DNA of 64,000 nt from Sarea resinae (taxonomy: Eukaryota), in contig JAPEUD010000016.1 of assembly GCA_026026165.1 (NCBI GenBank), forward strand, positions 1-64,000, given 5' to 3'. A program made the position numbers and the translations under genes. The stretch's first letter is position 1. Every line of letters starts with the position of its first letter. Of the stretch, positions 7,571 through 36,296 are shown in pieces. The notes beneath the pieces are model-generated. The model had not been told where the DNA came from and did no database searches. It saw only the letters and a list, made by a program, of their open reading frames with translations.

Positions 7571-8109
7571 GGCTGCTAGATTAGATGCAAGCAAGCCTTC
7601 TCCTTTCCTTTAAGCGCTATGTAAGCGCTAGAGGTAAAGTGCGCTGTTAGTCTGCTTTAGCTAGCTGTAATCACCTCTTAATACCTCTAACTCTAAGTAA
7701 CTCTAAGGGATAGAGCAACTCTAAGGGTAGGAAATTAACGCTAGTAGGCTAGCAATTAAACAAACAAAGGGCAAGCGTGTAGGTAAGGATTAAGGCAGCT
7801 ATTAAGGTAGTTAGGTTAGTAGGCAGAGAGCGTTTTTTAACAGGTGTGAAAACACTGTTAAGAAAACACTGTTAATTCTTACTTAGGCTTAGTTTAATGC
7901 CTTAAAGAGGTAAAGATTAGTAGGAAGACAGCGTCTTTAGCTAGTGCAATGTAGTTAGGTAGGATTATAAGTTGTAATACAGTTAGGACTTAAAAGAAAA
8001 GGTAATAAAAAGGCTACTACTAATAGAAGTACTTATCTAACTTTAAACACATTTATATTATCTTATTACTACTATATATATTAGAGAGAAGAGATTCTAA
8101 CACTCTAAC

Positions 8110-8418
8110 TATAAGGGCTACTACTAATAGAGGTGCTGTATAGAGTTTAGCGCAGCGTAAGATAACTACCTAATGTAGTTTAGCAATGTTTAAGTAAGCT
8201 AAGCAAGGTTATTAGTTATATAGATCAATAGAGGCGCTAGCTATTAGAGCTAGCGTTTAGTGCAATTACAAAGTTAGTGCCTACTAGTAATATCTATATC
8301 TATAGTATTAGTTTTATATTGCTAGAGTAACGCTAGCACGCTGCAATGCACTAGCCTATTTAATTATGCTATTCCTACCTACTCTACTATAGCTAGAAGC
8401 CTAGGAGGTAGTCTAATA
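8110..8418 (+). repeat. 5' LTR of outer element (heavily mutated)
   Basis: Colinear with 22148-22456 at equal length; the differences inspected are C>T/G>A transitions. Confidence 0.95.
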
Positions 8419-8429
8419 ATTCTAAACGC

Positions 8430-11400
8430 TCTACTAATATAGTAGTAGACTAGGCGAGATAGCGACAATAAATACATGTAATACTTTAAGGGCTCTTAAT
8501 ACTCTACTAAGTGAAGGAGCTAATAGAGACAACAATAAGACAGTAGCAAGCTAGGTAGAAGGCAAGGTTAAAGAGCCTGTCTCTAACTAGATCACTAATT
8601 AATTGCTAGACTAAATACAGTAAGAGCATAACGCTAAAGAGTAGCAGGCTTAATATTGTTGACTCTAGAGAGAGATAGCCTAGTTCTATACAGAACAGCA
8701 ACTACAAGCACTTGTGTAAGTATTGCAGCTAGGATAAGGCCTTGCAGCCGCTACGCTAGCACTCTACATCACTAACTAGACTAAAATCTAAGCTCTAAAG
8801 CTATTTACAAGTAAGATAATTAAAGAGCATAATAAATTCGTCTGATCCTATAAGATAGCGTTCTAACTAGAAGCTATTACAGATAAAAGTAATAATGTAG
8901 CAAAGGTGCTATATGCTATGCAGTACCTAAAAGACAAACTAGCGCTAGTGTAGCACTAGGTTAAAGAATCTACTAAGAAAGACACCTATACCTAGGATAA
9001 ATTTGTCTTATTCCTGCTAGACTAAGTAGAAGATCTAGTAAATCAGAGTAGTTTAATGTTATAGCTATACTATAACGCCACGCAAGGGCTGCACTAGAGT
9101 ATTAATAGCTTTACAGCTTTCTTAGAACAGATTAAACTAGAAGTGCTAGAAGGATAAGATATCTCTAAAGAGCAGCAATGCAACTTGTTCTATACTAAGA
9201 TCTAAAGTGAAATTTACTAGGAACTGCTCTAAACTCTACTAATACTACAAAAGTAGAGCGCTGCTGTAGCGTTAGCAAATCAGGTAGAGGAACTCCTTTA
9301 TATAAGTAATAAAGAGAATAAGAATAAGAACTTTAATCTATCTAAGCTAGATAATAAGCGACAGCATAGCGATAGTGTAGAGAAGAGAAAGAGTTAGAAC
9401 AAATAAAGAACTAAACAAAAGTTTGATCCTACTAAACGCAAGGGCAAAAGCCTACCTCTATAAGAACAAAAAACTTCTGCTTAGCCTAAGAATAATAAAG
9501 GCGATAAGTCTATATAGTGGCCTTAACAGCTCTCTAATAAGGAGTATTGCTGCAGGTAAGAAGGCAACCTTTACCTAAACTATAGCTAAGAGAGCTACTT
9601 TGCTTCTACTTATAAGAATAAACACAACGATAAGCCTACGCTAGCTTTATAACTAGAGCTAGAACCCTACACTATTTACTATCTTAGTGTAGGAGAATCT
9701 TAAAGAGCTCTAACTCTAAGATTAGAGACATCGCTAACTATTCGCACCCTTAGTAGTACAGCAAATAGCACTGCCTTAATTGATTTAAGAGCAGAAGCTT
9801 CTCTAGTTTTGCAATTATAGATTAAGGAGCATAGGATCTCTAAGGATAAGCTTAGGCAGCTACCTAGCGTAGTAATAGTAAACAGCTTGCAAGTAGCAAT
9901 CTATAGCTAACACTAATTAGAAATACAAGTCGCTAATAGTAATAGCGTGAGAAAGACAGTGTAGTGCTAGTTCTTTACCTACAACTTTAATAGTCCTCTA
10001 TTCTTGCTTAGGTATCTATAGCTGTCTTTATACCGCTATAATATGTGTTAGTTAGAAGGTAAATTTAGCTACGTTAAGCTTATAGATAAGCCTAGGCTTA
10101 GTAAGGAATATTAGAAGAAACGTTAGCTAAACTGCTAAGAGATTATAGTAGTGCCTAAACCTATAGAGGTAGTAAAGCTTTACTAGGTTAGCGCTAGTAA
10201 TAAGATACCTAAACAGTATAAAGAATTTGCTTCTGTCTTTAGCAAAGAGAAAGCTAGCTAGCTTCCTAAGCATAGCCTAGCTAACTATGCTATTAAGTTA
10301 GAGAGTAAAGACTCTCTCTATAGTCCTATATATCTATTATCCTAGAAAGAATTAGGTATTCTACAGACCTACCTAGATAATAGCTTAGTAAAGAGGTAGA
10401 TCACTTTATCTATAAGCCCTATTAGTGCGCTAATCTTATTTGTGCCTAAGAAAGATAGTAGCTTACAACTTTGCATTAACTACTAGGCGTTAAATAAGGT
10501 CACTATTAAGAATTAATACCTATTACCCCTTATTTCTAAGCTTATAGACTAAATAAGCAGTGCTAAAGTTTTTTTAAAACTAGACCTAAGAGATACCTAC
10601 TACTATATAAGGATCTATAAAGGCGATAAGTATAAGATAACGTTCTGCACTTATTACAGCTAGTTTAAATATAAGGTTATGCTCTTTAGATTAGCTAATG
10701 CACCTGCTACATTTTAGAGCTATATTAATTATACATTACAAGGCCTAGTTAATATCTGCTGTGTTGTCTATCTAGACAACATTCTTATATACTCTAATTC
10801 ACCTAATAAGTATAAGAAGCATGTACACTAGGTCCTTAAACAGCTATTAACCTATAGCCTATATGTAAAGCCCTTAAAATATGTCTTTAGAGTGTAGGAA
10901 GTTAATTTCTTAGGATTTGTTATTAGGACTAATAGTATTGCAATAGAGAAGAGCTAGGTAGACACTATAAAAGAGTAGCCAGCCCTTAAAACCTATTATA
11001 ACCTCTAAGTCTTCCTAGGATTCACGAATTTCTACTAACAGTTTATAGAGAAATACTCTATTAAAGTGCTGCTATTAACTAGCCTGCTTGCTAAGAGTAA
11101 GAATAGAAAGAAAAGCAGTCTATTCTACTTCTCTAAAGAAGCTAAAGAAGTATTTAAAGCCCTAAAAGAAGCTTTTACAACAGCGCCTATACTATGCTAC
11201 TACAATCTAAAGAGGCAGATATAAGTAGAAACTAATGCTTCTAGATTTGCTGTTGCAGCAATTTTATCCTAGCTAGTTAAGGATAAACAAGGCGTGACAA
11301 CAGCGTTAAGGTAGCACCTAGTTGCATACTAGTCTAGAAAGCTTACTAATACTAAATCGAGATATAAAGTGCATGACTTAGAGTTGCTAGCTATTGTAAT

Positions 11401-13560
11401 AGCTTTTAAGTAATAGCGCTACTACTTAGAAGAGGTAAATTACTCTATTAAGGTCTTAACTAACTATATAAATCTATACTACTTTATAACAACAAAGGAG
11501 TTAACCTATTACTAGGCTAGATAGGCTAAACAAATAGTAGCGTATAATTTTAAACTTATATATAGAGTAAGGAAAGCTAATCTAGCTAACAAGCTATTGC
11601 AGCGCCCTAATTACAAGGTAAAGATATAAGGTCTAGAAGTAATGCTTTCTACTCTATAGCAGAAGCTATAGAACCTGTGTATATTAAAGAGAGACAGCAC
11701 TGCGCTAGTAATCTAAAACCTTCTTACTAGAACAGATAATAAGTATCTAGGCGAAATAGGCGCTAATACACTAAAGGATAATGTGTATCTATAAGGGATT
11801 AAAAACCCCTCTAGGTTAGAGGATAACACTCTACCTACTGTTAATAAGCGATAGCAGCGCACTAGGATAACACCTAGTTTAAGTGTAAAGAATAATATAC
11901 ATCTATAAAGGATTAAAACCCCTTCTAAGTTATAGGATAACACTTAGCCTAATGTTAAAGAGTAATAGAGAGGCACTAGAGTAACACCTAGGCCTAGCCT
12001 AAATAACAATGCTAATAAGCTAGTATTAAGAGATAAGTTTAAACACCTCTATATAAGATAAGCAGTGTATAAGGCAGCTGCTAATAAAAGAGTGTATAAG
12101 CTGCTAATAAGCTAGCTGCTTAATGTTATCCTTAGGACTTAGTAGGAAGATTATTTCGCTAAGGAAAAGATTAGAAGCATTCTGACTAAAGAGGTTACAG
12201 GCTAAGAAAAGTGGAAAATAGACTCTATAGGCCTGCTACACTTAGAAGGCAAAGTATATATACTGTGTAATACAGCTATTAGGTTAGAAATTATAAGAAT
12301 AAACTATAATAACCTGTTTAGTAGCTACTTTAGCGCTAAGAGAATGACAAAGGTGATCTAGTGTAAATACTAGTAGACTAATTTAGCTAAGGATGTTAAA
12401 GAATATATTAATAAGTGCGATATATATTAAAGAGTCTAGGTGCCTAGGCATTGCCTATACAGCGAGCTACAGTTATTACCTATACCTTACTAGCTGTTTA
12501 AAGAAATCACTATAGATTTTATTATAGGCCTACTGCTAAGCAACATAAGAGATTGCAAGGCCTATAATATAATAATAGTAGTAGTTAACTGCTATACAAA
12601 GATAGCGAAATATACTCTATACTAGACAAATCTAAATGCTGCTATACTTGCAGATATATTTATTAACGTTATAACAACAGCGTATAGCAATCTAAAGCGC
12701 ATTGTATCAGATAGAGGCAGTGTATTCGCAAGCAAATTTTAGTCAGCTATATGCTATTAAATGCGAATTAAGAACTAGCTTAGCACTACCTTCTACCTGC
12801 AGACAGATAGCTAGACTAAGAGGTAAAACTAGACGTTAGAACACTACTTACAGTGCTATATAAGCAGCTGCTAGGACAACTAGGCTCTGCTATTACCTAT
12901 AGCTAAGTATACATACAATAATAGCATATATTTGTCTATAGCAATGTCACTCTTCTATGCCCTATATAGCTACAACTTAGATCTACAACTTAATATTACA
13001 GATAATGCTATAGAGAGAGAGGTGCTAGCAGCAAACAAGCGCCTTAATATCCTCTAAGAGGTAAGATAAAGACTAGAAGAGGATCTTACTAAGGCATAGC
13101 AGTACTAAGCTAAGTAGTACAATAGGAAACATAAGCTAATGCAATATAAAAGAGGTGATAGAGTTATGCTGTTAGCGCGCAACCTTAGCACTATACACCT
13201 AAGTAAGAAGTTAGAACACTACTATATAGGCCTATTTATAGTACTTAACTCTATAGGTAAGTAAGCCTACTAGTTACAGCTCTCTAAGGCTTATAGATCT
13301 ATCTATCCTATATTTTATATGTCTTTGCTTAAGCGCTACTACAGCAATAACAATACCTTAGACTAGCACTTTAAGCTAGTTAATAGCTAGGTTAAGTAGA
13401 TTGTTAAGAAAATCCTAGGCTATAGAGTACTTAAGAGAGAGCGATAATATCTAGTTAAGTAGAAAAGAGCTCTAGTAGATAACACTAGCTAGAAGCTAGC
13501 AGAACACTTAGTAAACGCTATAGACCTAGTATAGGATTATAAACAGCACTTACTCTCTAA
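8430..13560 (+). pseudogene. Degenerate gag-pol of outer element (PR-RT-RH-IN-chromodomain)
   Basis: Domain motifs in Ty3/gypsy order, interrupted by many TAA/TAG stops. Boundaries approximate. Confidence 0.9.
11775..12000 (+). repeat. ~114-bp tandem duplication in the RH-IN linker of the outer element
   Basis: aaggataatgtgtatctataagggattaaaaacccctctaggttagaggataacact is repeated as aagaataatatacatctataaaggattaaaaccccttctaagttataggataacact about 114 nt later. Confidence 0.8.
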
Positions 13561-14708
13561 CTAGTATAGAGGCCTAGCAAACAAGGAATAGAATGCTAGT
13601 GTGCTGTTAACTAAGCCCTACAATTAACTAAAGAAGTAACTACTTAGTGATAGCGCTATAGAGGCGACAGCTAAGAGGCTAAAGAGCTACCTAAGGAAGA
13701 ATCTACTACTCTATAAAGAACCTCTAGCTAGCCTAGAGATACTAGTAACAAAACGCCTATAAGGAAGGCTATAGAAGTATAGCCTAAAGCTGTAAGTAAT
13801 TGTAAGAAAGAGACCTTATAGCTGTCCTAGAAAGGACACGCTGTTATAGCACTAGTAAAGAGCTGCTATTAGAACTCTTTCTACCTCTTTTACCTACAAA
13901 GGTTTTTAGGTGGTTTTAGCAAGCTAATGTAGAGGTAGGCCTGCAATACAATTATATGCTAATAGTGTACAGTCTCTATAGAAGGCTATTAGGCTATAGG
14001 GCTACAATGCTACAGTTATAAGAGGAGATAAAGTTATAAAAAAGAAAGTGAAATTAAACCTCTAGCGCTGTCCTAGTGCGAACCTAAAGCTATCTAGTAT
14101 ATAAAGGAAATAGAAGGAACTACTATTCTATTACTAACTGCTTTGCCTTGCCTAGCCCTAACTAGCCTAATTGCTAGACCTCTTTAGAGGTGTAGTTATG
14201 TTATTATTATCCTTATTCTTACTCTTGCTAGCGCGTGTGATTAAAGGCAGGTCAAACTATAAGCTTTAGTTAGTGTAGCCCTAAGCTAGTAATAAGCTAG
14301 GCTAGCTTATAGCATAGCAGAGAATGTTATTTAGTCTCTTAACACTGTTAGCTAGGCGTTTAGTAGTGATAGCAGTGTGTAGAGCGTTGTCTAAGAGATA
14401 GCAGTTAGTAGCATTAATATAGGCTTTAACACTCCTTGTAAAACGCTGCTGTTTAGCTTAAAGAGCACCTAACGCAGGCTCTTTAGCTAGGTTATTATCT
14501 GTAAAAGCCGCTACTATATCTACTGCTTTAGCTAGCTAATTAAACTGCTTATAGAACTTACACAGCACCTATACAGAGCCTAGTTAGAGCCTGCCTAGAG
14601 CTATATTAAGAGCATTGCTTACTTTATTACACTTCTTATAGAGCTAGGCGCAGCATGTACACTTTGCTAAAGAGCTAGGACAGCTGCATACAATGTCTAG
14701 AATAGCAC

Positions 14709-14883
14709 TGTGGAGCTTAATACGCAGATGTAGGCTGCCGGAGTCACAGGAACTATAGCATTACTGGCGTTTGCTGTTACCTCTACTAGCCGTATATTAC
14801 CACTTCGCCTGATCAGGCCATAGTTAGAGAATCCATGCTTCCTCCATACCACTGATCTATGCAAGTCGTATCGAGATTCGTCA
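14709..14883 (+). repeat. 5' LTR of inner element
   Basis: TGTGGAGC...TTCGTCA, identical to 21481-21655. Confidence 0.98.
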
Positions 14884-14885
14884 GT

Positions 14886-14900
14886 TGGCGCCCCGAGGCG
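14886..14900 (+). promoter_or_regulatory. Candidate tRNA primer-binding site (TGGCGCCCCGAGGCG)
   Basis: Starts with TGG (complement of tRNA CCA) 2 nt after the 5' LTR. Cognate tRNA not identified. Confidence 0.75.
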
Positions 14901-15170
14901 AGTCCGTCTGCATAGTGACGTCTGTATGGTGATCGACAAGAAAAGCATCGCGTTTGTTTTGTTCAATACATTGCTGCCATCGGGCTTCTATCGGGGTCAG
15001 TGGATCCATCGAATCAGTCACAACAATCATCGGATACACGTGAGCGAGGCCATCGGGCCAAACCATTCTACAAAGTTCGATCGATATCGATTGATCGAAA
15101 CCGTCAGATCGAAATCGTTCGATTGTCTATTGGGACATTGACGAGACTATCAAGTCAGATATACGAATAC

Positions 15171-15225
15171 TCAATCGGAATCGTTCAATCGGAATCGTTC
15201 AATCGGAATCGTTCAAATCGGAATT
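15171..15225 (+). repeat. 14-bp tandem repeat TCAATCGGAATCGT x3 plus a partial unit, in the retroelement leader
   Basis: Read directly from the sequence. Confidence 0.9.
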
Positions 15226-15374
15226 GGTGTGTTCCAGTAGGAAAAATACCATTATCAAAGTCGATCTATTTCCCTCAAAAGCGATCCGGTTCTATCGAGT
15301 TCGAATAATCGAGTTTGATCAATCTCGCGTTTACCAGTTTGATCAATATCATCGTGTTTACGCCCAGTAAACAT

Positions 15375-17648
15375 ATGAGTCCGGTTCCTTCCAGGTTTCC
15401 CGCGCCTTCCTCATTAGCTCGACCCAAACAATCAATATCGTCCATGCCGACTGAGCATTCCACGTCACCAAGTCGTCCACCCCTCACCACACAGAAGTCA
15501 GACGACACCGACGAGACCGGTCAACTCGAATACCTACAACAGCAGGCCAAGCCACTATTACCCAGGGTGGACGCAGTCAGGATGGAGTCACAGATCCATA
15601 TTCCAAAATTCAGTGGAGCGAACGATAACGCAGATGAGGCGAACGAGTTCCTCGAAGATATCGAACTAGCTGTCAGCATCTCTGGACTCAACGCTGACGT
15701 ACGCCAAAACTACTCTCGCATGCTGTTCAGACAACATCTCACTAGTGATGCCTTGCAATGGTATCGCCAATTGGAGAACTCTGTACGAAATTCGTGGACA
15801 GAATTACGCCAGAAATTTATCGATGACTTCACTAAGAGCAATGCTGAGTTTACCACACTGGATAAGATCGTTGCGTTACGACAAGGATCCATGGGTATCC
15901 GAGAATATGTCGATCAAGCCACATTGATCAGCCGGAATTGTCCAGCAACTTACTCTGCGTATCTCGCACGACAATTTGTCGCGGGGATGAGCGACAAAGA
16001 ACGCAAACGACTCGTCACGATGCATCTTGGAGAGACCGCCTTTACCTTCCAAGCAGCAAAAGAAGCGGTAAAGCGAGCATACATGGAGATCGGCGAGCCT
16101 AGTCCGTTCGATGGACGACCCGGATCGAAGACGATGGGTAGGACCCAAGACGAGATCAACAATTTGCTATACCAAGCACTCGAACGAGGCATGACGCTCT
16201 CGCCTCCAGCGGGATTGGTTGCACCTCAATCGCTTCCGGAGATTACGAATGAAATGGGTCGCCGGGGGCGTGGAGCAGCACCCTCCTATATGACATGCTA
16301 CAACTGCATGGAGAAGGGTCATTATTCGGACGAATGCCCACACCAGCGTGTCTCTAAGCTTCAGTGGGACGCGAACATGCAGGAAGTAGCACGACAACGC
16401 GATCAGGCAAAGGCCAATCGACCCACACCGAAAGCGGCTCCAGCGGCATCGGCAGCACTCGAAACCAATTGCGGGATACTCGAACACGATATGCCGGCTA
16501 TGCCAGTAACTAGGACACAGGCGCAGCGAGCTCATCGTACTGGGCGCGGCCAGCCGTACGAACCTCGTGAGATCGTTCCACCTAATGAGCAATACATGGA
16601 ATTGCCGCCTTCCGGAGATCGAGGCATGAGGGACGCACCAGAGGCTCCTGAACAGCATCTTGAATATGGACCGAACCAAACCGGAGTTACGCCGCAACAG
16701 CAGACGGCCACGCAGACACGAAATGCTCGTACGACCGGCACCCGAACTGAGACGCGTAAGAACTTCGAAATGCCTGCCCCGATTCACATGCTAGGAGAAG
16801 GAGAGCGATTCGATTTATCGGCTGCCTTCAATGGAATGCATGTCAACCTACCATTGAGTCAGTTGTTAGACAGCTCGCCACAACTCCGACGACAGCTAGC
16901 GTATCAGCTACAATCCTCTATCGTCAGACGCCGCGGTCCAAACCGAGCGAGACAGACTGCTACACCGAATCAGTCTATACCTGAAGCGAGTAATGCCGTG
17001 CCGCGAATTCTCAAACGTGGAGAGAAGAACGAGAAGAACGAAATCGCTCGACCACCTAAGATAGTCAGCGAAGCAAAAGACGATGGCACCCTGGCTAAAG
17101 TAATTTACATTACGGCCTGGATCGGTGAAGTGATGACCGCCAAAGCACTAGTCGACAGCGGGGCAGTAGTGGAACTGATCAGTCAAGATCTGGTCAGACG
17201 CATTCCTGGTGTCGTGGAGCATCCCACGGATGGAAACTGGCGTATCAGACTGGCTAATGACTCTACCCACACGCTTACGACCTACGTGTGGATTCCGGTA
17301 AATGTCGATGGAGTCCTGACGACCCTTCGTGCCTTTGTCATTCCAGGTGGCACTGGGTATGACCTGCTGCTAAGTCGAACTTGGCATCGACGAGTGGGGT
17401 GTATCCACAACCATCAGAGTGACAAGATCACTATACGTGGACATGATGGCGTCGAACACGAAGTGGGCGGAAGATCAGTGACAGCGGAACGGACCGACCT
17501 GATCGTCAACCCAGAGGATCCCTCGCTCCCCCTGCCTACTGCGCTCACGGAAGATGAGATTCTCGCAGACGAGGAAGTGGAACGACTCATCGACGAAATC
17601 GACAACCATGACTTCCTCTACGATCAATCGGGAAAAGCTCTGCGCTGA
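15375..17648 (+). CDS. gag: Gag-protease polyprotein (capsid-like region, CCHC zinc knuckle, aspartic protease)
   Basis: First in-frame ATG at 15375; CYNCMEKGHYSDEC knuckle; ALVDSGAVVELI protease motif. Confidence 0.92.
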   Translation: MSPVPSRFPAPSSLARPKQSISSMPTEHSTSPSRPPLTTQKSDDTDETGQLEYLQQQAKPLLPRVDAVRMESQIHIPKFSGANDNADEANEFLEDIELAVSISGLNADVRQNYSRMLFRQHLTSDALQWYRQLENSVRNSWTELRQKFIDDFTKSNAEFTTLDKIVALRQGSMGIREYVDQATLISRNCPATYSAYLARQFVAGMSDKERKRLVTMHLGETAFTFQAAKEAVKRAYMEIGEPSPFDGRPGSKTMGRTQDEINNLLYQALERGMTLSPPAGLVAPQSLPEITNEMGRRGRGAAPSYMTCYNCMEKGHYSDECPHQRVSKLQWDANMQEVARQRDQAKANRPTPKAAPAASAALETNCGILEHDMPAMPVTRTQAQRAHRTGRGQPYEPREIVPPNEQYMELPPSGDRGMRDAPEAPEQHLEYGPNQTGVTPQQQTATQTRNARTTGTRTETRKNFEMPAPIHMLGEGERFDLSAAFNGMHVNLPLSQLLDSSPQLRRQLAYQLQSSIVRRRGPNRARQTATPNQSIPEASNAVPRILKRGEKNEKNEIARPPKIVSEAKDDGTLAKVIYITAWIGEVMTAKALVDSGAVVELISQDLVRRIPGVVEHPTDGNWRIRLANDSTHTLTTYVWIPVNVDGVLTTLRAFVIPGGTGYDLLLSRTWHRRVGCIHNHQSDKITIRGHDGVEHEVGGRSVTAERTDLIVNPEDPSLPLPTALTEDEILADEEVERLIDEIDNHDFLYDQSGKALR

Positions 17649-17688
17649 GTCTGGATCAGGCACCGGATCAGCGCAGAGGACTGCCTGA
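17630..17688 (+). promoter_or_regulatory. Programmed -1 ribosomal frameshift signal (G GGA AAA plus H-type pseudoknot)
   Basis: Heptamer at 17630-17636 is in phase. Stem CTCTGCGCTGA(g)TCTGG pairs with CCGGATCAGCGCAGAG. Loop TCAGGCA pairs with TGCCTGA at 17682-17688. The -1 frame is open into ORF 17729. Confidence 0.88.
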
Positions 17689-20600
17689 AGCGTCGAGACC
17701 GTCACCGACGAGACCGGCGGCGATAGGCATGCCAAGGGAGGAGGATGAGTTAGCTATACAGCGAGGAGAGTTACCAGACGGACCGTTATTTTCATATATT
17801 ATCGACACCGATGCATCACCGCATCGAAAAGCAGCACTCATGTTTACAGCAAATACAATGGCGGCAGCAGAGATCACCAGAATCGATAGAACATCGGTAT
17901 CGGCAACACCAGTACCGATTACAATGAGGCAGGCGCGCCACTTTCCGGTAGAGAGACGACCGATCCAGCGAGAACTATCGAACGATAGCCAAGAGGACAT
18001 CGACACATGGTTTAACACCAGTGGAATCACAATCGGCGAATGCGCTTCCACTGAGGAGCAGCAAGCAAAGGCGCGGCGATTATTCCACACTTGGAAGGAC
18101 GTCTTTGCCAAGTCAATGAGGGAAGTGAAACCCACCGACTTGATCCAACACACGATTGATCTCCATTCCGATGCAAAACCTGTCTACGCCAAGCGAGCCA
18201 AGTATAATCCAAAGGAAAGCCAATTCGCAGCGGAAGTCTTCCCTGAGATGGAGGAGGCTGGTATACTCGTTAGAGGTAGCAGTGAGTGGGGTGCGCGGAC
18301 ATTGTTCCCACCCAAAAAAGGATGGACGACTCCGCGTCGTGCACAATTTCATTCCAGTCAATAAGGCTACGATTAAGTCCAGTTATCCGATGCATAATCT
18401 CGAGGAAGTCTTGCATACGGTCATTAAACCAAAGTTTTCCTGCTTCTTTTCCGCCGACGCGAGTAATGGGTATTGGGCCATACCGATAAGGCCAGGCGAC
18501 GAGCATAAGGCTGGCATTACTACCCCCCATGGCCAATACCTGTATCGGCGGATGGGCCAAGGACTGAAGGGAGCGCCCCACACTTATTCGCAGTTTACCG
18601 ATTTGGTGTTTGGACCATTGCCAAAGACCGATGCTCAAGCTCGTATACCCACTCTCATCGGAGATCATGGAAGCTGGGCCTTTAGCCCATTCATGGACGA
18701 CCACCTAGCAGGAATGACCGACTTCGATACGGCCTTCGACATGATGCACACCCAATACTTCCCCCGTGTGGCCTTCGGACCGGTTTATCTGAACCCAGCA
18801 AAGATGATTGCGTTCACCGGATCATTAGACCTCATAGGGTTCACTGGAGGAGTAGAGGGAATTAGACCATCAGTTCGACATCGCGAGCGTATGTGCAATT
18901 GGCCGGAACCGAAGACAAGAGTGGATCTCGACGCGTTCATCTGGATCACTCCGTTTTTGCGATGGTTCATACCAGGCCGGGCTGGCCACGTCCTCCGATT
19001 GAAACAGGCGTATCAACGAGAAGAGCCTGTACTGACGCCAAAAGGGAAGATATCGGTCCAAACCAAGATGGTGGAAACGGATCAGTTCACATGGGGTCCA
19101 GGGCAACGCGAGTCGTTCGAACATATCAAGCGATCAATCAGGGAGAATGCCACATCGGGATCGGATCCAGAAAAGCAGCATCATATGGCCGCCGATGCAA
19201 GCTTACATTCGGTCGGAGGGGTGCTCTTCCAGCTACGGGATTCGCCAGCCGGCACCGAGGCCACCGATAAGAACAGCAGGGAACTTAGCATAATCATGTT
19301 TATGTCATTCCGCCTCACATCAACCGAAAAACGATATCATACGACGGAGCGGGAAGCACTGGCAGTAATCAAATGCCTAGCAGAAGTCAAGTGGCTGATC
19401 ATGGGAAACAAGCATCCTACAAAAATATATACCGATCATGAGGCTCTTACCACTATACTCAATAATGGCACCGATAATCACGGTAGGATCGCGAGGTGGC
19501 AAGATCGGTTATCCGAATACGATTATGAAGTCCATCATCGACCAGGGAAGGCCAACATCATGAGGATCGCTGACGGTCTCAGTCGGATGCCACGTTGCTA
19601 TTCAACAGAGTGCAAAGCCAGGGACGCGGACAGGATGGCGATGGCAGCATCCATGCCAGCCGGTCTACCGATGCGCGAGACCGATGGAACGACCGCCCCA
19701 GCTGGGTCGACCGTCGGCGAAACCGTCGGCCCTTCTACCGGTGTGGTCCAAACCGATATTCCGTCCACCGAAACCGAAGAAACCGTTAAACCGCCTGTCA
19801 GCGAAGCCATTGATCCGTCTTCCGATATCGTCGAAAGCGATAAACCGTCAAACATCGGAACCGACAGACCGTCTATTGGTAGTCTCGCTGGTTCGACCAG
19901 TCAAGATGTGATCGCAGCACCTGAGGAGTTAGAACCATACGGGCCATGGACCGAATGGGTCGAGTCAGGACAATATGGAGATGTCACCGCATACCTTCTC
20001 GACGGACTCAATGGATTGCGAGATCGAACCAAAAGTGAGATTGCAGCGATTCGAAATAAGGCCAAGCGATATCTCCTTGGGGATCACAAACTACTCTATG
20101 TTGAGCGAGACGGCAAACACTCGAAGTGTATCATGACTGCGGAAGTGGAATACATCTTACGGCATCTCCACGAAGATCATGGACACTTTGCAGCCGCGAT
20201 CACGTTGGATCGGGCCAAAGGGCAGTTCTACTGGCCGTCTAGGGTAGCGGATATCGAGTCATGGTGTCGTACTTGCCACACATGCCAGTTGACCGGACAG
20301 AGACGGCCGAGTGCAACGCTCAATCCGATACCGCGCTTCCAGCCAATGGAAATGATCGGATTAGATTTCCTCGGACCAATCAAACCAGTCTGTGCAGCGA
20401 CAGGAGCGGCCTATATCATCATTGGTGTTGATTATTTCTCTCGGTTTACCTGGGCCGCGGCCGCAAGGGCGGCAACTATGAGGGTAACAGAGCAGTTTAT
20501 GAATGACCGTCTCGTTCCGTCTTTCGGCTGGCCTAAGGCGATCTACACAGACAACGGGACCCATTTTTGCGGCGGCGAAATCACGGCATTGTGGGAGGCT

Positions 20601-21305
20601 AAAGGAATTCACCACTATCGAGCACCAATCTCCCATCCATCTACGGTAGGCTTGGTAGAACGCAATGTGCAGATCGCATCCAGCCTACTACGGTCGTACT
20701 ATATCGACAATTACCCATATAGTACAGACTGGTCCAAATATCTTCCGGAGATTTCGGTGTCGATGAATTCGCGTTTGATTCGGATCCATGGGTTTACCCC
20801 AGGTCAAGTCATGTTCGGATTTGATCCTCGAGTCACACAAAGGCATACTGACGACACGGGTCCAATGGATCCAGACGAATTGCCACCACATCAGAATGCT
20901 CTGCACATAGAAGCTCGCCAAGAATTCAGGGAAAGGGCAATCGACCTTATGGCTGCGGGAAATGCCCGTATGGAGAAATCAAGAGATCCGTTATGGACCA
21001 AGCCGCAACAAGGGGATCTAGTACTAGTACGACTTTTTCAATTAGACAAAGACAAAGGACGTAAACTCGAACCCAAGTGGAGCGAACCGCAATTGCTCGT
21101 CGATGTTCCAAACCCAGGAGTATCGGGATACGTGGAACCGCTACACGGAGCCCACCGTCGACGCAAGATCCACTTTGACGACATGAAAGTATATTTCCCA
21201 CGTCTCCCATCAGGTCAAGAGATACCGGCCAGAACAGCGATAGTCATCGATCGAGAGGCCTACCGATATCCCTCCATCCCAGGATCCAGAGCTGTTTTAC
21301 TGTAG
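17633..21305 (+). CDS. pol: Pol (RT, RNase H, integrase), split by a +1 frame break at the A6 run 18314-18319
   Basis: WGARTLFPPKK|DGRLRVVHNF joins the two ORFs. Motifs: DASNGYW, FMDD, RNase H AADAS/EREALA/YTDH/ADGLSR, HHCC HEDHGH..CHTC, integrase GLDF/YTDNG/GLVE. Confidence 0.9.
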
Positions 21306-21465
21306 GTCGAACCACCCACTATGGAGTCGAAAAGAGGGTCGCGTTGCGACCAATTTATCCTGTTATCACAGAGTTGCTTTATTACAAGGCTGCCCTTACT
21401 ACACCATACAGAGCACTCGGAGTCAGTTGCTAAGCTTAGAGGATCCTCGCAGGTGCTTCGGAATC

Positions 21466-21480
21466 GAAAAGGGGTCGCAT
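21466..21480 (+). promoter_or_regulatory. Polypurine tract of inner element
   Basis: GAAAAGGGG followed by tcgcat directly before the 3' LTR. Confidence 0.8.
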
Positions 21481-21655
21481 TGTGGAGCTTAATACGCAGA
21501 TGTAGGCTGCCGGAGTCACAGGAACTATAGCATTACTGGCGTTTGCTGTTACCTCTACTAGCCGTATATTACCACTTCGCCTGATCAGGCCATAGTTAGA
21601 GAATCCATGCTTCCTCCATACCACTGATCTATGCAAGTCGTATCGAGATTCGTCA
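21481..21655 (+). repeat. 3' LTR of inner element
   Basis: Identical to 14709-14883. Confidence 0.98.
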
Positions 21656-22147
21656 GCACTAAGGCACTTAGCGCAGCGCAGATAGAGCTCCTAATAGAGC
21701 TTAAGAGGCTCCTTTAGATTTAGATAGGGCTTGTGTATACACAGCAGAATAATAGAGGCGCAATTAGGAACGTTTATAATAGGTAGATAAGCATATAGAA
21801 TGTACCTAAAAACATAGTGCAAAAAGTTTGATTATATACACGCGCACTAAATCACCTACGTTTTATACCTACACACCTATAGCTAAGCGACCTCTAAGCA
21901 ATAGAGAGAATGCCTAATACAGATAGTTTAAAGCATTCACTTTGTCTATTTACTGCTGCTATTCTAGCGCAGCGTTTAGCAAACTAAGCAAATAAGACAA
22001 AGAACTCTCTTTATTATCTATATAAATTCACTAGTTGCAGCGAATAGCAACGCTACTAAGGCGCTAGCAAGACAAAGACTTAACACTATAATGTTATACA
22101 TTGCAAACAAAGGACCTAGAGGACTAGGTCCTAGGAGAGGAGGTAAT

Positions 22148-22456
22148 TGTAAGGGCTACTACTAATAGGGGTGCTGTATAGGGTTTGGCGCAGCGCAGGG
22201 TAACCACCTAGTGTGGTTCGGCAACGTTTAGGTAAGCTGAGCAGGGTTATTAGTTATATAGATCAATAGGGGCGCTGGCTATTAGGGCCAGCGTTCAGTG
22301 CAATTACAAAGTCAGTGCCTACTAGCAATATCTATATCTATAGTATCAGTTTCACATCGCTAGGGTGATGCCAGCACGCCGCAGTGCACTAGCCTATTCG
22401 ATCATGCTATTCCTACCTACTCTACTATAGCTAGAAGCCCAGGAGGCGGTCTGACA
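22148..22456 (+). repeat. 3' LTR of outer element (less mutated)
   Basis: TGTAAGGG...GTCTGACA followed by the CTAAC TSD. Confidence 0.95.
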
Positions 22457-23220: not shown

Positions 23221-23884
23221 GACTCGTTCGTTGTTCGACGTGCACATCTGTGAGAATCGTGATCCAGTTTGAAATGTCAGAGAATGTGCTCGCGACGGAG
23301 TGGCATCGATAGATTAAATAGGCCACCAAATCACCAAATCACTATGCCAGGGGGGGGTTTGATATGCGGGGGATATGCGGGTGATCCGCTATGATGCAGC
23401 CGCCGGCTCCCTAATGATCATCAGAACTAGCAGGATCACTGTAGGATACAGGGCTGGAATTGCAACGGCTCCTGCCTTTCCTGTCAGCTCGACCACTAGG
23501 CAGGGCTGATGCAGGGATGGGGTTCGGATGTTGTGATGTTTTGTGTTGTGGCTGCAGCTTGGTCGCCGCCTCGCCATTCGGCGACTCCGCACTTGCTTCT
23601 TTGTTGTTTTTCTCCCAAACAGCCAACAGCGAACAGCCAACTCGCTCTCCCTCAGGACCTGAAACACGCGGGGACTGGATGACCGGTGGACGTGTCCGGT
23701 ATAAATCAATCTATATGGGCCACCCTGTCGGCCACCGATTACAGGAGTTGTGCGTCGTGCGTTGTGTGGCTGGCAGAGCGAGTCTCATTCATTTGATATT
23801 GCCCACTCGACGATTGTCTACTATATATCGTCTTCCTATTTTTGCATTCTCCATTTGCCGTTGCGACCCCCAAACAAACGCAGC

Positions 23885-25683
23885 ATGGACGACCTCCTCT
23901 CCCTCTTCCAGCGCTGGTCTCTGCCGGTGCTGATCTGCCTCGTCCTCGGTCTCATTCTTTTCACCCTCGTCAATTCCATGCGCGATACCAATGCAAGCAA
24001 GCTACCGACCATCAACAGCAAGGGAATCTGGGAGTTTTCCGACAAGCGCGTCAAGCAGAACCATGTGCGCAACGGGCGTCAACTGCTCCGTGAGGGTTTG
24101 AAGAGATTCAACGGCAGCCCGTTCCGGATGCTGACTGAGTCCGGGCCCATCACCATCCTCCCGCCTGAGTACGCCCACGAAATTCGCAACATTCCCAGCC
24201 TGGACCATACGGCGGCCATTGCTAAGGTGGGCTGGTGTTCTCCATGGAGCCATTATTGCCCGTGCTAATACGACGGCACACCTAGATGGTCAACGCTCGT
24301 TATCCCGGTTTGGAAGCATTCCACGAGTTTGCGTTTGGTGGAGACCTCATCCAGGATGTCGTCAAACTCAAGTTGACACAGGCGCTGGGTATGTTGCTTC
24401 CTATTACTCAACTGCATTCCATCGCTAACCGTCACGATCAGCGAACATGACCGAGGCGCTCTCTGATGAGACTTCTTTGACCCTTCGTGATTCTTTCACC
24501 GACGAGAAAGGCGGGCTCCGAATCAGACATGGTGGTGGTAGACTCCTTCAGCTAATGACTTGACAGAGTGGCACGCCATCGTTACGAACTCGACTCTCCT
24601 CGGCGCGGTGGCTCGCGTCTCCTCCCGTCTCTTCCTGGGCGACCGACTATGCCGCGACCCCGAATGGCTGAACATTACGACCACTTACACGCACCATGTG
24701 ACCAGTGCAGTCATGGAGCTCAACTCGTGGCCCTCTCTACTACGTCCATTCATCTTCTGGTACTTGCCACGTTTCCGTGAACTGATGCGTCAAGTCCGAG
24801 AAGCGCATCGGGTCATGGGTAAAGTCCTGGAGGAGCGTCGGGCCTTGGAGGCCGCGGGAAAGGCCCCAGAATACGTCGACGCCATCGAATGGTTCAAGCA
24901 GGTGGCCAATGGTCGCAAATACGATCCGGTCCATGTGCAGCTGACTCTGTCTTTTGTCGCGATCCACACAACTGCCGACATGGTCACCCAATTGATGTTC
25001 GACCTTGCCCAGAATCCCGAGTATATCCAACCCCTTCGTGACGAAGTGATTGCGGTACTCGGAAACCAGGGCTGGAAAAAGACGTCCTTGTACAACATGA
25101 AATTGCTTGATAGTGTACTCAAGGAGTGTCAGAGATTGAGGCCGATCAACGACAGTAAGGCAGCTTTCTATTACTCATTGGCTTTCTTATCAGGCATTCA
25201 CTATATTCAAAGATCTCGGTTTTCCCAGACCGCTGACAACTTTTCAAATTAGCCTCTTTGCAGCGACTTGCTCTGAGCGACGTGAAGCTTTCCGATGGGA
25301 CAACGCTCCAGCGCAACGGGATATCTTGTGTCGCTTCAGTCCGCCACTGGGACCCCGAATACTACTCTGACCCGCTGAGGTTCGATGGATATCGGTTCCT
25401 GAGGTTGCGGGAAGAGCCTGGCAAGGAGAACACCTCCCAATTTGTCTCGAATACCCCGAATCATCTGGGTTTCGGATACGGACAACATGCATGCCCCGGC
25501 CGCTTCTTCGCATCGAACGAGATCAAGATCATCATGTGCCACATCCTGCTGCAATACGACTGGAGGTTGCCAGAGGGGCAGGAGCCAAAGATCCTCGTTC
25601 ATGGATTCAATCTGATCGCCGATCACAAGACAAAGCTCGAGATTCGCCGACGCCAGGAGGAAATCGACATTGACCATCTTTGA
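23885..25683 (+). CDS. Cytochrome P450 monooxygenase (CYP68/ent-kaurene-oxidase-like group), 5 exons
   Basis: N-terminal TM anchor, I-helix FVAIHTT, ExxR (KECQR), FDGYRF, heme motif FGYGQHACPGRFFA. Exons approx 23885-24226, 24286-24388, 24441-24510, 24567-25154, 25253-25683. Confidence 0.95.
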
Positions 25684-26696
25684 TCGCACATCTGAATTAC
25701 TAAGCCCTTGTGTGGCCGCAACTTTTTCTACAAATGGTAACCTTCCTTGCCAATCGGCAAACCTTGTTGCAATCACAACCGCAGGGGTTGCGATTCTCTG
25801 ATTGGTTGGATGATGCTGCTATACAAGGCCGATATAACCCCTTTATTACGTTGTTAGTATATTCGGCACTGATATTCTTCTTTTTTTTTCTTTTCAACTT
25901 GTAGCAAGAACTCAATACAACGTTCTCTTCATCAAATTGTAGTCCGATGCCATAGTCTCTGTGCAGGTGTAAGACTTCGGTATTTCCTGGTAGGTGGGGA
26001 TGTCAGGCAAGCGCTTCACTCAAGCTCTCCAGGAAGAGATCCAGAATGCCATTGCAGCTGGTACCCCTCCTCCTAAGATGGCTGCATCGTTCCCTGTTTC
26101 GCTGTCAATGGGTATACGAGCTCCGCTTGGACCAGGAGGTGCAGGGTACCTAGGTACCGTTCGTTGTACGTCTGCAAGCTTAGGAGAGCCCCTGCATTAT
26201 CTGCGCATCCTTGCCACGCGCAGACTGAACGTATCCATACGAAACAGGACGAGGAGCTTCGTGCTCGCCCGCAGTTGCATGAGCGACAACAGCTGCAGTC
26301 CAGCGATATATCACATATGTGGTCAACGAGCAGGATTGCATAGACTGCAGAACGATAAAGCTTCAGGGCAGGGTTACCTACCTCAGAGGGTTATAGCCCC
26401 GATTGGCCAATATAAAAATCAAGTTATCTGTCTGCACGATGGTGAAATTCATCTAGACCTGCAGATCATATGTTCCCTCCTTCGCGATTCTGCGCTTCGA
26501 GTCCAGACCATGCATCCGCTCGGCCACGAGGAGCTTTCATCCACTCTGCACAAATGCGCTGTCGGATCTGGACACGCCGATGCGCAGCTGGATGTTCTAT
26601 ATCCCCGCATTCCCTAATCAGTTACATTACCTAGAAAGCGCAGTTGTCGAAACAGAACTATCACGGCTACAACACCATAATCGATAGTAACGGGCC

Positions 26697-27738
26697 ATGG
26701 CGACCGAGATGGAAGGACATTTTGCTTTCGTTGGTAAGCCTTGGAAAAGCGCAGACGGAGAGTTTCACTGGTCGCGGGTCACTGACTCGATATCCGCAGG
26801 CCTGGGAGCCATGGGCTTCGGCATGGCGAGCAACATCCGACAGAAGATGGCTTCGTCGTCGGTGCTGTTCATCTGCGACATCCACCGTCCCGCCTGCGAC
26901 AGATTCGTATCCGAGTTCAGCCAATTCGGGCCCATAGAGATTGTGCCGTCGGCGAAAGAGGCCGCGGCGAACGCCAAGGTCTTTATATCCAGCCTGCCCA
27001 GTACTGCGGTCATTCGCAAAGTCTACCTGGACGATGCCGATGGTGTCATCGCCGCGCCCGCAGACCCGCACAGGTTGATCTTGGAGTCGAGCACCACAGA
27101 TGTGTCGTCGGCGCGGGGGGTCGCAGAGCAGCTGGCAGCCGCTCACGCTGGGTGCTATGTGGATACGCCTGTATCGGTATGCTTCAAAGAGGGGTTTTTC
27201 TTTGCCAGCGTATTGACCAATACAGGGCGGAGCGCAGGCATCGACGGCGGGTAAATTGTCTTTCATGATCGGGCATCTCAAACCCGAGGAGTCCGATGCC
27301 ATGGGACGACGACTCGAAAGGATTCTGACGATGATGGGGGAGCCGCGGAAGCTGTTTTGGTGTGGCAGACTGGGCGCCGGGCTCGCGGCAAAGATCAGCA
27401 ACAATTACATCTCCTGCACCGTCTTTCTCGTCGTCGCAGAGGCCCTGGCAATCGGAGTCCGGTCGGGCATCGACCCAAAGCTGCTCCAAGAAGTCATCCA
27501 CAACTCGTCAGGACAGACCTTCATGGGCGACATTGTCAGTAATGTGCCGAGGACGGAATTGCAGGGCCGGAATGGGTTTCCAATCCACCTGATGATCAAG
27601 GACGTCGGTCTCGGCATCGATGTTGGAAATGAGACTGGCGTCACACCGAGAATGGCTCTAGCAGCACTGGAAATCTGGAAGGAGGCTGCAGAAGACCCTG
27701 ACTTCATCAACCACGATGGCTTTCGCAACGATAAGTAG
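26697..27738 (+). CDS. 3-hydroxyisobutyrate/6-phosphogluconate-dehydrogenase-like NAD(P) oxidoreductase, 3 exons
   Basis: GLGAMGFGMA Rossmann motif, DTPVSGG after splicing, GAGLAAKISNN, MIKDVGLG. Confidence 0.88.
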
Positions 27739-30658: not shown

Positions 30659-31521
30659 TCTTGCGTCTCTGTCGTCTCGGTTTGGATCAGGCTAACAGTG
30701 AAGATCCAATCAGCGAACAATTGTCCTGCTCGACAATGACGATCAAGATGAAGAACACTTCGATATCCTCGGACTGCTGACGAGGAGCTGCTGGGAGTCA
30801 TATAAAACTGCCGGCATCGCTATCAATGGTATTGTCGGTATCGCGTTATCATGTTCGTTATCAGGAGAATCAGGAGAATGGAAACCGGCGTGGTACATAC
30901 AATGCGTTATTTGTACACGGTTGTATCGCAAAAGCTCGACCTTGACATTGATGACAAGTGACGACGAGTAACGAGGAACGGTGAGCTTATCACAATCTCG
31001 TATCTGCTCCAAGTCTTGGCCCGGCAAATCTCGATTGACCCGGCGAAGTTGACGAATCTCCCACGTTGCAAGGCCGATTAGGTACGCCGGTGCACGCCAC
31101 AGTACCGCAGTACAGATGCTATGGGGACGGACGAGAGGTACCGGGTTGGGGCTAGATTGCGACTGTGGAGATAGGGTCGAGATAGCCACGTAGCTGGGGG
31201 TGGACTTAGAGTCGGCGGTCTCGTGGCGCCGGTTAAATTCTCCTGGGCATCCGGCAGAGGGAGGGGTTCTTCTCCTCTCAGTTCAGCACCGCTTCTCCGT
31301 GATCCCCACGATGGACTTGATAGCTCGGGTCTCTTGAATGAAGAGCTATTGTCGCCAAGCGATAGCGACGACAGCGACGATAGCGATGATCAAAGCAATG
31401 CCAATGCGACTGTCTTTCTTCTTCAAAAGTCATAAAGCATCCCCTTTGTCGCGTTTCCCATGATGTCAAAGGAAGATGGTGATCCGCACATCGACCTGAT
31501 GCCCTCTTTCCCTCACCGACC

Positions 31522-33545
31522 ATGAGGCTCGCGACCGTAGCTGCGGCGGCTGCAATGTCCCTTGACAGACTGACCGCGGCCTCTTCTTTGTCCACCCGAT
31601 CTCCCAATGCGCAAAGTCTTCTGACTGAGTCGATGACGTGGATGGACATCTATTACGACCCATCCGCCGGCTATCTGCACGACTTCAGCGCCCAGACGGC
31701 CCTGCATCATGAAACGCGTAGTTCAGCTTGGTATTCCGTTGGGCTGCTGGCCAGGAATCAGGGCGAAGATGTCGCCCAAGCGGAGCTCATCATCAGAAAT
31801 ACTATCAAAGGACAGTACAAAAACGCCTCGGAACAATGGTGAGAAAACTCCGCCCTTGGAGTATGTGGTTGACTGTAACATCTCACAGGTACGGAGAGTA
31901 TCAGCAAGAGCCAGAAGAACCATATGTTGGGTCACCGGCCTATCCGCAAAAAATATACGGCACGTGGGACGCAAACTGGCGAGGGTTTATCGCAACGACC
32001 TTTATCGTCGCACTTGAGGAGTTTGGCGGACTGATCAGCGAGGACACGACGAGGCTGATGAAAGAATCCTTGCGGATCGCAGCCATTGGCGACTCCTACC
32101 GCATCGGTGGTGTGGAAAATGACAACCTATATCCAGCGTACAGCAATCCGGTGAGGAGTCCAAACGGAGCCATGTCCGCCGAAAAGGAGAGGACTGGCGT
32201 ACTGATCATCGAATCTAGTCCTTGATGCGTGCATTCGCGTCCGGGTGGACCGGTCGTCGCTTGAATGATACTAATATGACAGCAGCCGGCGAGCAGTACG
32301 CACAGCAGGTTGTGGATCTATTCAATAGGGCAAACACCCTGTCCGAGTTCAACAGCGGCACTTATACCGGCGTCTCGCTGTTCGCTCTGACGTTGTGGGC
32401 CAAGTATCTTCCTAGCGATTCGATCATGCAGCAATATGGTCCCAAGATCATCAGCTATACGTGGGAAGACGTGGCCCAGCTATGGCACCCGGACCTCAAA
32501 AACATGGCAGGACCGTGGGATCGTGCATATGGATTTGACATGAATCGCTACCTGAGTCTGATGGCATTGCACTTTTGGACCATCATCGGCAAAGAGAAGT
32601 CTTCTCTCCTCCCAAGGGTAAGATGAAAATTGAAAAGCCTTTGCTGGGGTACATGCGAGACATATTCTCACGACTTGTGCTGATTTAAAGGTCAGCCTGA
32701 GATCATGTCACACAGCGCCGACTATGCCTTCGGTCCCCTGATTGCTGTACTCGCCGATTTCCACCGCACTCTTGTGCCCGCGGACGTCCTATCTCGTCTC
32801 GAAAGCTTCTCAGGCGAACACACATTTACCTCTTCGGCATACTCGCCTCCATACGACTACCAGCCTCGAAATATCACCTCGTGGCTGGCGCCGAACATCA
32901 GCATCGGCGCCGAGACTTTCAACGAGACTGTCATTGGTGGACCGGCAAAGAACCAGGACACTTTCAACCCGGCAGTCATTCAATGGGCGACAGGCAAAGG
33001 TGGCATTGGATTCATCTCGGTGGGTCGCCCCTTCTTTGTCTTTACAGTGCGAAAGCAATCCTCCAGCTGCGGGCCCGGAAAGGCATGAGGGAGAAGAAAC
33101 TTACAGGGAACTAATCACATCGTCTCCATACAGCTATATGCGACGGAGCCTGCGCTCATTACTGAAGTCAGCCCGTACCGATTGAGCCTGACATACCCCT
33201 TCGGAAACAGCTCGTCGATATTCAGCTTCATCGTCTCGACAGTCAATTCCAAGCCAACTATCTCCGGTTGGACGGACTTGGAAGGGCTATCGGTGAACGT
33301 CTCTGGCAGCATAAATTTGACATATTCTCTATCGTTCGCTGGTCTCTACGGAGGCGATGACACTCCTATCAAGTAAGAACTCTCTTGCTGGAAGCTCTTC
33401 CCTGTATAGAACGATGAGGGAATCCCGAAAAGTCTTGCTAACAATGTCTTCCAGCAACTTTGAGTATTGGAATTTTACATACAGTGTCTTTGAAGAGGTT
33501 TTTGAGCCACCGAAAATAGTCTTAGATATTACTTTAAGCGCTTAA
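31522..33545 (+). CDS. Putative secreted hypothetical protein, multi-exon (possibly an enzyme)
   Basis: Signal-peptide-like start, consecutive coding exons with GT-AG introns, many N-glycosylation sequons, motifs HETRSSAWY, WDANWRGF, LSEFNSGTY, AGPWDRAYG. Confidence 0.8.
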
Positions 33546-35335: not shown

Positions 35336-36296
35336 CTATTTGCTTCAATTGGTGCCGTTGGTTCTCCAAGACGCCGGATCTTTGATGGAGAATCTGAGGA
35401 TTTCGGGCTGTGTGTGGGGCCGCTTAGATGATCGGGTCTTGCAGACCATGATGGATACGTCGATGATTGTCAATCTGGAAGTAATGCCAAAGAATCTCAT
35501 CAACGGGTGTTAACTCACAATCGGAAGGAGAGAAGAAGAGCGGAGGTGCGAATCAAAATCTTCTACGTGCACAGTAATTACGAGCTGTTTATTATGTGTC
35601 TCCAGCCAGCGCTACAATCTCTCTTCGCTGTGAACGGTCAAGTGCTTCAGGATGGGTCCTTCCCGAACAGGTCCTCATAAGAGTTTCAATATGAATTGGA
35701 CGTAGATCACTAGTTTCCCTTTCTGCGTTTCTTGCGACACCGTATAGTATTGGTAGCTCCCTCCCAGACTATTAGGACAGCAAGTATCTCATGGACCAAA
35801 TGATATCTCTCGTGAATGGGAATAAATACCTTTCGTGATATGGGATATTGAGAGCCGTACACAAGAGCGTGAAATTGCTGTTATATAGAGGGCATAGCCG
35901 GCGGACGGGTCAAAATAGATGTCCATTCACGTCATCGACTCATTCAGAAGACTTTGCGCATTAGGAGATCTTGACAAACAAGAGGCCGTGGTCAGTCCAC
36001 CAAGGGCCATTGAAATCGCTGCGGCTGTGGTCGCGAGCCTCATAGTCGGTGAGAGACCGTAATCAAATGAGTCAAGTGCTTAAAGGTACCTGCCGAATTC
36101 ATTCACCAACGACACCTCGTACACCTCGTACCCTCTATGGCCCAGATCTCTCAGATCTCATCCCTAATTCGGCTTCTCCTCTGGTTCTCTTTGGTCTTCT
36201 AATCACTAAGATCACGGCACTCGCTCTTCTTAATTTCGAAACATTCTCGCCTCATTTTTCTCACCTCATTTCATCTTGGCTGGCCTCAAGCTCAAG

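Follow-up and report, generated by a model that had tools for sequence, protein, structure and literature searches.

A recent Ty3/gypsy insertion from a distinct lineage, probably unnamed and sequence-selective at 4-bp target sites, in the Sarea resinae genome

A stretch of 64,000 nucleotides from Sarea resinae (contig JAPEUD010000016.1, positions 1 to 64,000; hereafter the window) begins at a telomere, continues with about 14 kb of AT-rich repeats of the type left by repeat-induced point mutation (RIP), and carries a 6947-bp retrotransposon with a long terminal repeat (LTR) at either end (hereafter the element). The element is very probably a single, recently inserted Ty3/gypsy copy of a distinct chromodomain-less lineage in filamentous ascomycetes, and is a non-chromovirus by the chromodomain criterion. 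The lineage is probably unnamed and its integration sequence-selective, with a preference for alternating purine-pyrimidine (RYRY) targets that goes beyond an earlier note on this DNA, where it was only guessed at.

The LTRs are 175 bp long, run from TG to CA and show no differences over their 175 positions, and GCAC is present at both ends as a 4-bp target-site duplication (TSD); the length and identity of the LTRs and the TSD are as the earlier note had read them. Together with a primer-binding site (PBS) and a polypurine tract, the element thus displays the hallmarks of Metaviridae. Three contigs from X1, a sequencing run whose contigs were built separately and which is possibly the same data as the assembly, carry an empty-site joint passing from 14703 to 21655 and correspond to empty paralogs of the older element in which the insertion lies (hereafter the host element). 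The 6951 bases skipped equal the 6947 of the element plus 4, which indicates a target duplication of 4 bp. Tracts resembling the polypurine tract GAAAAGGGG occur in relatives L163 and L194, and a near-duplicate of the tract and its flanks lies at window 21323-21347, some 135 bp upstream of the genuine tract.

Collecting further genomic copies for a target consensus, as had been proposed, was not feasible, the element being single-copy by DNA search and read depth; the consensus was therefore taken from relatives. Among 80 metagenome loci, 25 had at least one junction; their boundaries were taken from LTR alignment, in 8 cases by an automatic procedure and otherwise manually or through LTR homology. 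TSDs of the 16 two-ended relatives measured 4 bp in 14 and 5 bp in none, the remaining 2 being mismatched (L167, L207), so that the 5-bp duplications which the earlier note had named as contrary evidence did not appear. Counting one 4-mer per element, RYRY was found in 25 of 25, and in 40 of 41 junctions, against a flank background of 5.2% for RYRY and 0.2% for GTAC. GTAC accounted for 15, GTGC for 4 and GCAC for 2, with ACGC, ACGT, GTGT and ATAC seen once each; the TSD of the element itself fits the pattern. Drosophila Gypsy elements (gypsy, 297, 412, Burdock) likewise produce 4-bp TSDs at palindromic alternating motifs, ATAT, TATA and TRYA (PMC3276498 Tables 3-4). The integration step is alike in both, although the Drosophila motifs are AT-rich whereas those found here are mostly G-Y-R-C. 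Given the alternating 4-bp sites and the Ty3/gypsy layout, the element would work like a Ty3/gypsy element with a Drosophila-gypsy-like target choice. The integrase of the lineage would cut with a 4-bp stagger and pick RYRY sites such as GTAC, GTGC and GCAC, as the pattern in the relatives suggests, and the DNA may bend at the central YR step. Retroviral integration is described as favouring a flexible central YR step, with a stronger bias where TSDs are short (PMC4422553), and we infer that the 4-bp stagger and flexible step may extend by analogy to this lineage. Neither a GTAC or RYRY target in fungi nor a description of the clade was found in the literature searched, most subscription journals and Repbase lying outside that search.

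The divergent non-chromoviral lineage proposed in the earlier note is borne out by protein comparisons. A search returned 169 matches, about 110 of them close, the named ones from Chlorociboria, Dactylella, Lasallia, Xylariales, Venturia and Penicillium, and further, deeper members came from a profile search covering 1.84 billion representatives. Scored with a profile of reverse transcriptase (RT) and RNase H (RH), 147 of 345 near-complete rows reached at least 410 bits, and the next row 240. Trees were built from database proteins and in-genome families. In an RT-RH tree thinned for redundancy (84 of the 147 members, 46 of 91 others and 10 of 107 sequences of the type found on contig C108, see below), all 84 member rows formed one branch with support 100, to which the unnamed proteins P0333 and P0354 were sister with support 99. 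Smaller IQ-TREE runs held all nine rows together (support 100 for RT-RH and 98 for integrase), with the same sister pair (99 and 95). The element shares 32-65% identity with clade members and no more than 30% with any sequence outside the clade. No match to a named clade was found, curated GyDB, REXdb and Repbase references lying outside the comparison. P0333 and P0354 are themselves Pol proteins forming a long-branched group, possibly a second undescribed lineage.

Fungal chromoviruses, represented by the host element and by an element on contig C108 of the host genome assembly (G000, contigs of which carry C numbers), belong to the same superfamily and share with the clade the order protease (PR), RT, RH, integrase (IN), but possess a chromodomain, only one open reading frame (ORF) and a Y-x-DD motif and are about 25% identical to the element. 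The C108 element (L064:1570-10000) is intact, RIP-free and encoded in one ORF of 2102 aa; its PBS, of the tRNA-iMet type, overlaps the LTR end, and its family is very large (999 matches). The nearest named insect match, P0118, is 29% identical and falls outside the clade. Ty3 of budding yeast is the nearest relative with a solved structure (7q5b, E 5e-112; also 4ol8), and the element encodes a Ty3-capsid-like Gag; Ty3 itself targets Pol III start sites and generates 5-bp TSDs (PMC5014426, PMC5911963).

Fungal Gypsy elements have been divided into chromoviruses, Ylt1-like elements (including Tca3 and a separate ascomycete group) and SN_1006 (PMC2864245, Novikova et al. 2010), a division including a non-chromoviral Ylt1-like group with which Muszewska et al. 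2011 agrees (PMC3248453). Tuber clades are chromoviral or Skipper-like, with further Tmt clades (PMC12581995), and general background is given in PMC13728883 and bioRxiv 2022.12.06.519325. The Ylt1 lineage and SN_1006 thus likewise lie outside the chromoviruses, and the clade may already have been described, as the ascomycete Ylt1 group, as SN_1006 or under Repbase family names, a possibility that we take seriously but lean against. Tca3, placed in the Ylt1 lineage, shares the 4-bp TSD (PMC4139406 Table 1) and has short LTRs of 277-313 bp and two long ORFs; its distinct minus-strand priming, by contrast, differs from the ordinary 19-nt tRNA PBS of a relative on contig C42 (PMC4139406 for Tca3). 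As a lead only, the protease region is closest to Basidiomycota clusters, some with DUF4100, but no DUF4100 match was obtained for five clade Gag ORFs (E<=1), for that of the element (E<=0.1) or for that of the C42 relative (E<=0.05).

A further, non-chromoviral family of the host genome, with the motifs PQGATNS and FLDD in place of the GQGLKGAP and FMDD of the element, also bears on this question. We take the motif pair to be Ylt1-like, a label that no search result attached to the family. It too encodes Gag and protease in ORF1, which ends in AAAAAAC-TAG; five unnamed proteins are placed with the family by RT-RH (support 98) and with the clade by integrase (support 99), and joining clade and family was not rejected by the approximately unbiased (AU) test (p 0.52). 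On the other hand, in neither tree did the family and the clade group directly, its Gag-PR resembles that of the clade only marginally (24% over 88 aa, E 0.024), and a chromovirus sister was equally unrejected. The best RT-RH tree keeps the clade separate from chromoviruses, the sister position having p 0.48 in the AU test with only RIP-degraded in-genome copies as references. Copies of the family, RIP-degraded and with the Gag-protease ORF ending in a slippery site, lie at L268:2171-7422 (contig C56), L260, L261, L263 and L266; no LTR pair was found in three regions, and hence no TSDs. Other searches yielded little: a viral-contig search for relatives gave one distant locus, a search for fused long relatives of 2821-5000 aa gave three distant proteins (a range uninformative on Ylt1-sized proteins), and a protein-cluster atlas queried with RT-RH gave generic RT clusters. 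The lineage is real and wide; that it is also unnamed remains our probable reading, at chances that we put near balance, with Ylt1 and SN_1006 compared by description only.

The coding layout of the element recurs in the lineage. ORF1 contains the capsid, a CCHC motif (E 4e-4) and, as the earlier note had it, the protease, although the Pfam protease match is weak (E 0.015, below the cut-off); RT, RH, H2C2 and integrase core were matched in Pol, in the order PR-RT-RH-IN, and GQGLKGAP and FMDD were both located in its second ORF. The absence of a chromodomain was also upheld: no Chromo match appeared at E<=0.1, under conditions in which a chromodomain-bearing element from this genome matched at E 1.8e-11. 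Nor did the Pol proteins of four relatives match Chromo, and PF00385 is listed for none of P0001-P0110. RVT_1 is not listed by Pfam for many members, and scored 14.7-44.6 bits in four relatives, two of them under the 29.6 cut-off. The linker between RH and integrase that the earlier note described is a low-complexity stretch, at 98 rather than about 110 aa and rich in S/T/P/A/G/E. Among relatives the RH-IN distance spans 101-421 aa (194 in the element) and is as long or longer in 22 of 111, and the catalytic motif of the 147 rows is FMDD in 49, MIDD in 34, FVDD in 29 and another in 35. FMDD and a long linker were consequently rejected as lineage-defining traits, and what had looked like an unusual combination in one element dissolves into traits of the lineage (Gag-PR/-1/Pol, 4-bp TSD, no chromodomain) and traits that vary within it.

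Both ORFs were callable in 10 loci, of which L208 and L209 are identical in sequence, and in all 10 Pol lies in the -1 frame and overlaps the Gag-PR end. A strict XXXYYYZ heptamer is present in 8 of these junctions and GGAAAAC in the other 2, and a hairpin is predicted immediately 3' of the slippery site in 6 of 6 folded junctions, with z at or below -2.4 in three (the element, -2.98; the C42 relative, -4.01; L164, -2.47). From this layout and general knowledge of such sites, we infer programmed -1 frameshifting in the lineage. ORF1 would yield Gag with protease attached, and a -1 ribosomal frameshift at the heptamer and hairpin near its end would add RT-RNase H-integrase; with the protease encoded before the -1 site, it would be made in Gag amounts. 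Ty3 uses a +1 frameshift and carries its protease in Pol, and errantiviruses carry protease in Pol and an env-type ORF3. No third ORF lies behind Pol in this element, and hence no errantivirus-like env-type ORF. In five relatives a same-strand third ORF of 356-1146 aa follows Pol. These ORFs were rejected as one conserved gene, with no similarity among the five at E<=0.05; none contains a 19-aa window above 1.41 hydropathy that would suggest a membrane segment, no env family was matched in the three scanned, and L162 and L164 gave no Pfam match over the cut-off.

A second member of the lineage resides in the host genome (L063:1-8507, contig C42, minus strand), single-copy with intact ORFs, FVDD and 43% identity to the element. 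Its LTRs are identical over the 127 nt assembled, the contig beginning within the 3' LTR, and it has an extra ORF of 445 aa without Pfam match. Older fragments of the lineage are also present. On contig C41 (L065), GC-rich subtelomeric repeats of 23 bp come after the telomere repeats, together with deletion-bearing fragments from a closer family of this lineage (52-68% aa); telomere repeats occupy L065:1-435 there and positions 1-125 of the window.

The element itself seems disabled, a feature that the earlier note did not record; nor did it mention the slippery site with its hairpin, the single-copy state or the lack of a full host tRNA match for the PBS. Pol is split over two frames, whereas relatives read through: 131 of 146 keep 60 aa or more in one frame upstream of the break point. 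Lacking the continuous RT frame of an autonomous element, it is unable to make a continuous RT because of the break near 18314. If the assembly had slipped at a homopolymer, or if the break were a further programmed frameshift, the element would be autonomous; the break does fall in an A-run and X1 may be identical data, but an X1 contig of 5383 nt at depth 380 spans it with no differences and no gaps, relatives are continuous at that position, and the second copy expected of an active element was not found, which makes such an explanation very unlikely indeed. The copy is young, probably dead and without a source copy in the assembly.

The element sits in the 3' non-coding part of the host element, a single-ORF element with many stops and, read by eye, a chromodomain-like tail, all 38 of whose LTR differences are transitions. 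The right LTR of the host element (22144-22443) retains G/C at 36 of the 38 sites differing from 8106-8405; the end of the host element that faces the genes has thus taken far fewer RIP mutations than the end towards the telomere. TpA/ApT is 0.60 in the element, without RIP signature, and 2.06 in the host element, and the absence of RIP inside a RIP-hit element points to late insertion. The 0/175 LTR differences bound divergence only to <1.7%. X1 read depth was 380 inside the element, about 370 on unique flank and 741 on the LTR, corresponding to a single-copy interior and a two-copy LTR. Other DNA matches in the genome were fragments of 100-270 nt, 68-76% identical, and a DNA search of the assembly returned no solo LTR. 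The earlier claim of recent activity thus holds for the insertion event and not for the copy, with its broken RT and no source here. The copy would have landed in an old RIP-degraded element near the telomere and escaped RIP, and its absent source was, most simply, lost by segregation or deletion.

The PBS-like, tRNA-type TGGCGCCCCGAGGCGAGTC begins 2 nt past the 5' LTR; a full match to a host tRNA, from an incomplete tRNA list, was not found by pattern scans or by ARAGORN on 29 loci (0 genes). ARAGORN on 30 more loci and 10 regions added only Arg(TCT), and a further 10 loci were judged by eye. The best-pairing tRNA in a set drawn from 52 loci, for which 63 of 701 candidates were scored, was tRNA-Arg(TCT), over 10 nt with two G-U. 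No exact genomic complement exists, the exact 12-mer occurring at the PBS itself only; an apparent near match on contig C71 lies in coding-like sequence and was rejected as a tRNA. The PBS differs between families of the lineage, and that of the C42 relative matches host tRNA-Thr(CGT) at 19 of 19 positions. Reverse transcription would start from the 3' end of a tRNA, with the tRNA varying from family to family, as seen in that one relative. Several close inverted pairs of same-type tRNA genes were noted in G000, for example at C1:167539-167867, C35:229557-230030 and C52:315755-316324.

A PBS without exact host counterpart, next to the 19/19 of the C42 relative, and the failure to find a source copy, a sibling, a solo LTR or any RIP-degraded relative at more than about 76% DNA identity (short fragments) would fit recent horizontal transfer from another fungus, the copy being dead on arrival. 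We regard this as unlikely: no donor was found, the closest relative being 65% identical in RT-RH; RIP in the host means that segregation in a cross can remove a source copy; the C42 relative, too, exists as one copy; GC content equals that of the host (0.514 and 0.515); and the tRNA list, possibly also the assembly, is incomplete.

Several observations weigh against the overall reading of a recent copy from a distinct, target-selective lineage. No host tRNA fully matched the PBS of this copy, and X1 may be the source run of the assembly, in which case its support is non-independent. The gap between 410 and 240 bits is partly circular, the profile having been built from members, and by BLAST identity narrows to 32% versus 30%. 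Of the 25 target sites 22 come from one LTR/PBS type, L197 and L224 are possibly one insertion, the pairs of L167 and L207 are mismatched, and the only assembled flank of the C42 relative, CCGC, is not RYRY. Weak hairpins are predicted for L208 (z -0.37), L170 (-1.42) and L162 (-1.85), and the hairpin begins 1 nt past the heptamer, closer than usual.

Taken alone, the lineage may be an unnamed deep Ty3/gypsy branch, with P0333 and P0354 as sister, spread across Pezizomycotina, in which 4-bp RYRY targeting replaces the chromodomain, tRNA primers switch and large unrelated third ORFs are repeatedly gained; we hold this to be nearly, not quite, an even prospect. That such a lineage is combined with a fresh horizontal arrival of this copy, its PBS still fitting a foreign tRNA, appears improbable. 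Feature coordinates are collected in Table 1.

Table 1. Coordinates of the element, its surroundings and the third ORFs of relatives (window positions unless a locus is named)
Feature	Position	Strand	Remarks
Host element, RIP-degraded, chromovirus-type	8106..22443	+	LTRs ~8106-8405 and ~22144-22443, 87% alike
Left TSD copy GCAC (RYRY), 4 bp	14705..14708	+	flank comparison and X1 empty-site contigs
5' LTR, 175 bp, TG..CA	14709..14883	+	
tRNA-type PBS (putative)	14886..14904	+	best host tRNA, tRNA-Arg(TCT), 10 pairs with two G-U
ORF1, Gag-protease	15309..17648	+	capsid ~15600-16016, CCHC ~16293-16343, protease ~17112-17375
Pol piece 1, spacer and RT start	17612..18364	+	-1 frame relative to Gag
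-1 slippery heptamer G GGA AAA (GGGAAAA)	17630..17636	+	in Gag frame
16-bp hairpin directly behind slippery site (predicted)	17638..17678	+	z -2.98; 2/200 shuffles equally good
Pol piece 2, RT (GQGLKGAP, FMDD), RNase H, integrase	18144..21305	+	RNase H ~19092-19520, H2C2 ~20142-20294, core ~20388-20630
A-run where RT frame breaks	18314..18319	+	relatives read through in single frame
Low-complexity stretch, RNase H to integrase, 98 aa	19635..19928	+	S/T/P/A/G/E-rich; length variable among relatives
Polypurine tract, short	21466..21474	+	6 nt upstream of 3' LTR; read from sequence
3' LTR	21481..21655	+	same letters as 5' LTR
Right TSD copy GCAC	21656..21659	+	flank comparison and X1 empty-site contigs
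Large third ORFs of relatives	L162:6635-8749, L164:6556-9132, L208:7054-10494, L194:12412-13482		hydrophilic

Elsewhere in the window, inverted-repeat arms 77 and 84 nt long (92% and 82%) lie about 4.2 kb apart at 31509-31674 and 35894-36056, possibly the ends of a DNA transposon or an inverted gene duplication. Cytochrome P450-like and hydroxyisobutyrate-dehydrogenase-like coding pieces, read by eye, stand beside the repeat block at 23705-27738 and are possibly part of a subtelomeric metabolic cluster.

For the host, the copy described here is a dead single insertion of little consequence. For the family, surveys recognise chromoviruses and Ylt1-like elements among fungal Ty3/gypsy, and a further, well-supported branch with poor Pfam RT scores would be under-annotated. 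The third ORFs of the lineage represent unexplained cargo, and the strong preference for 4-bp RYRY/GTAC sites makes it a natural case for comparing the ways in which integrases read their target DNA.

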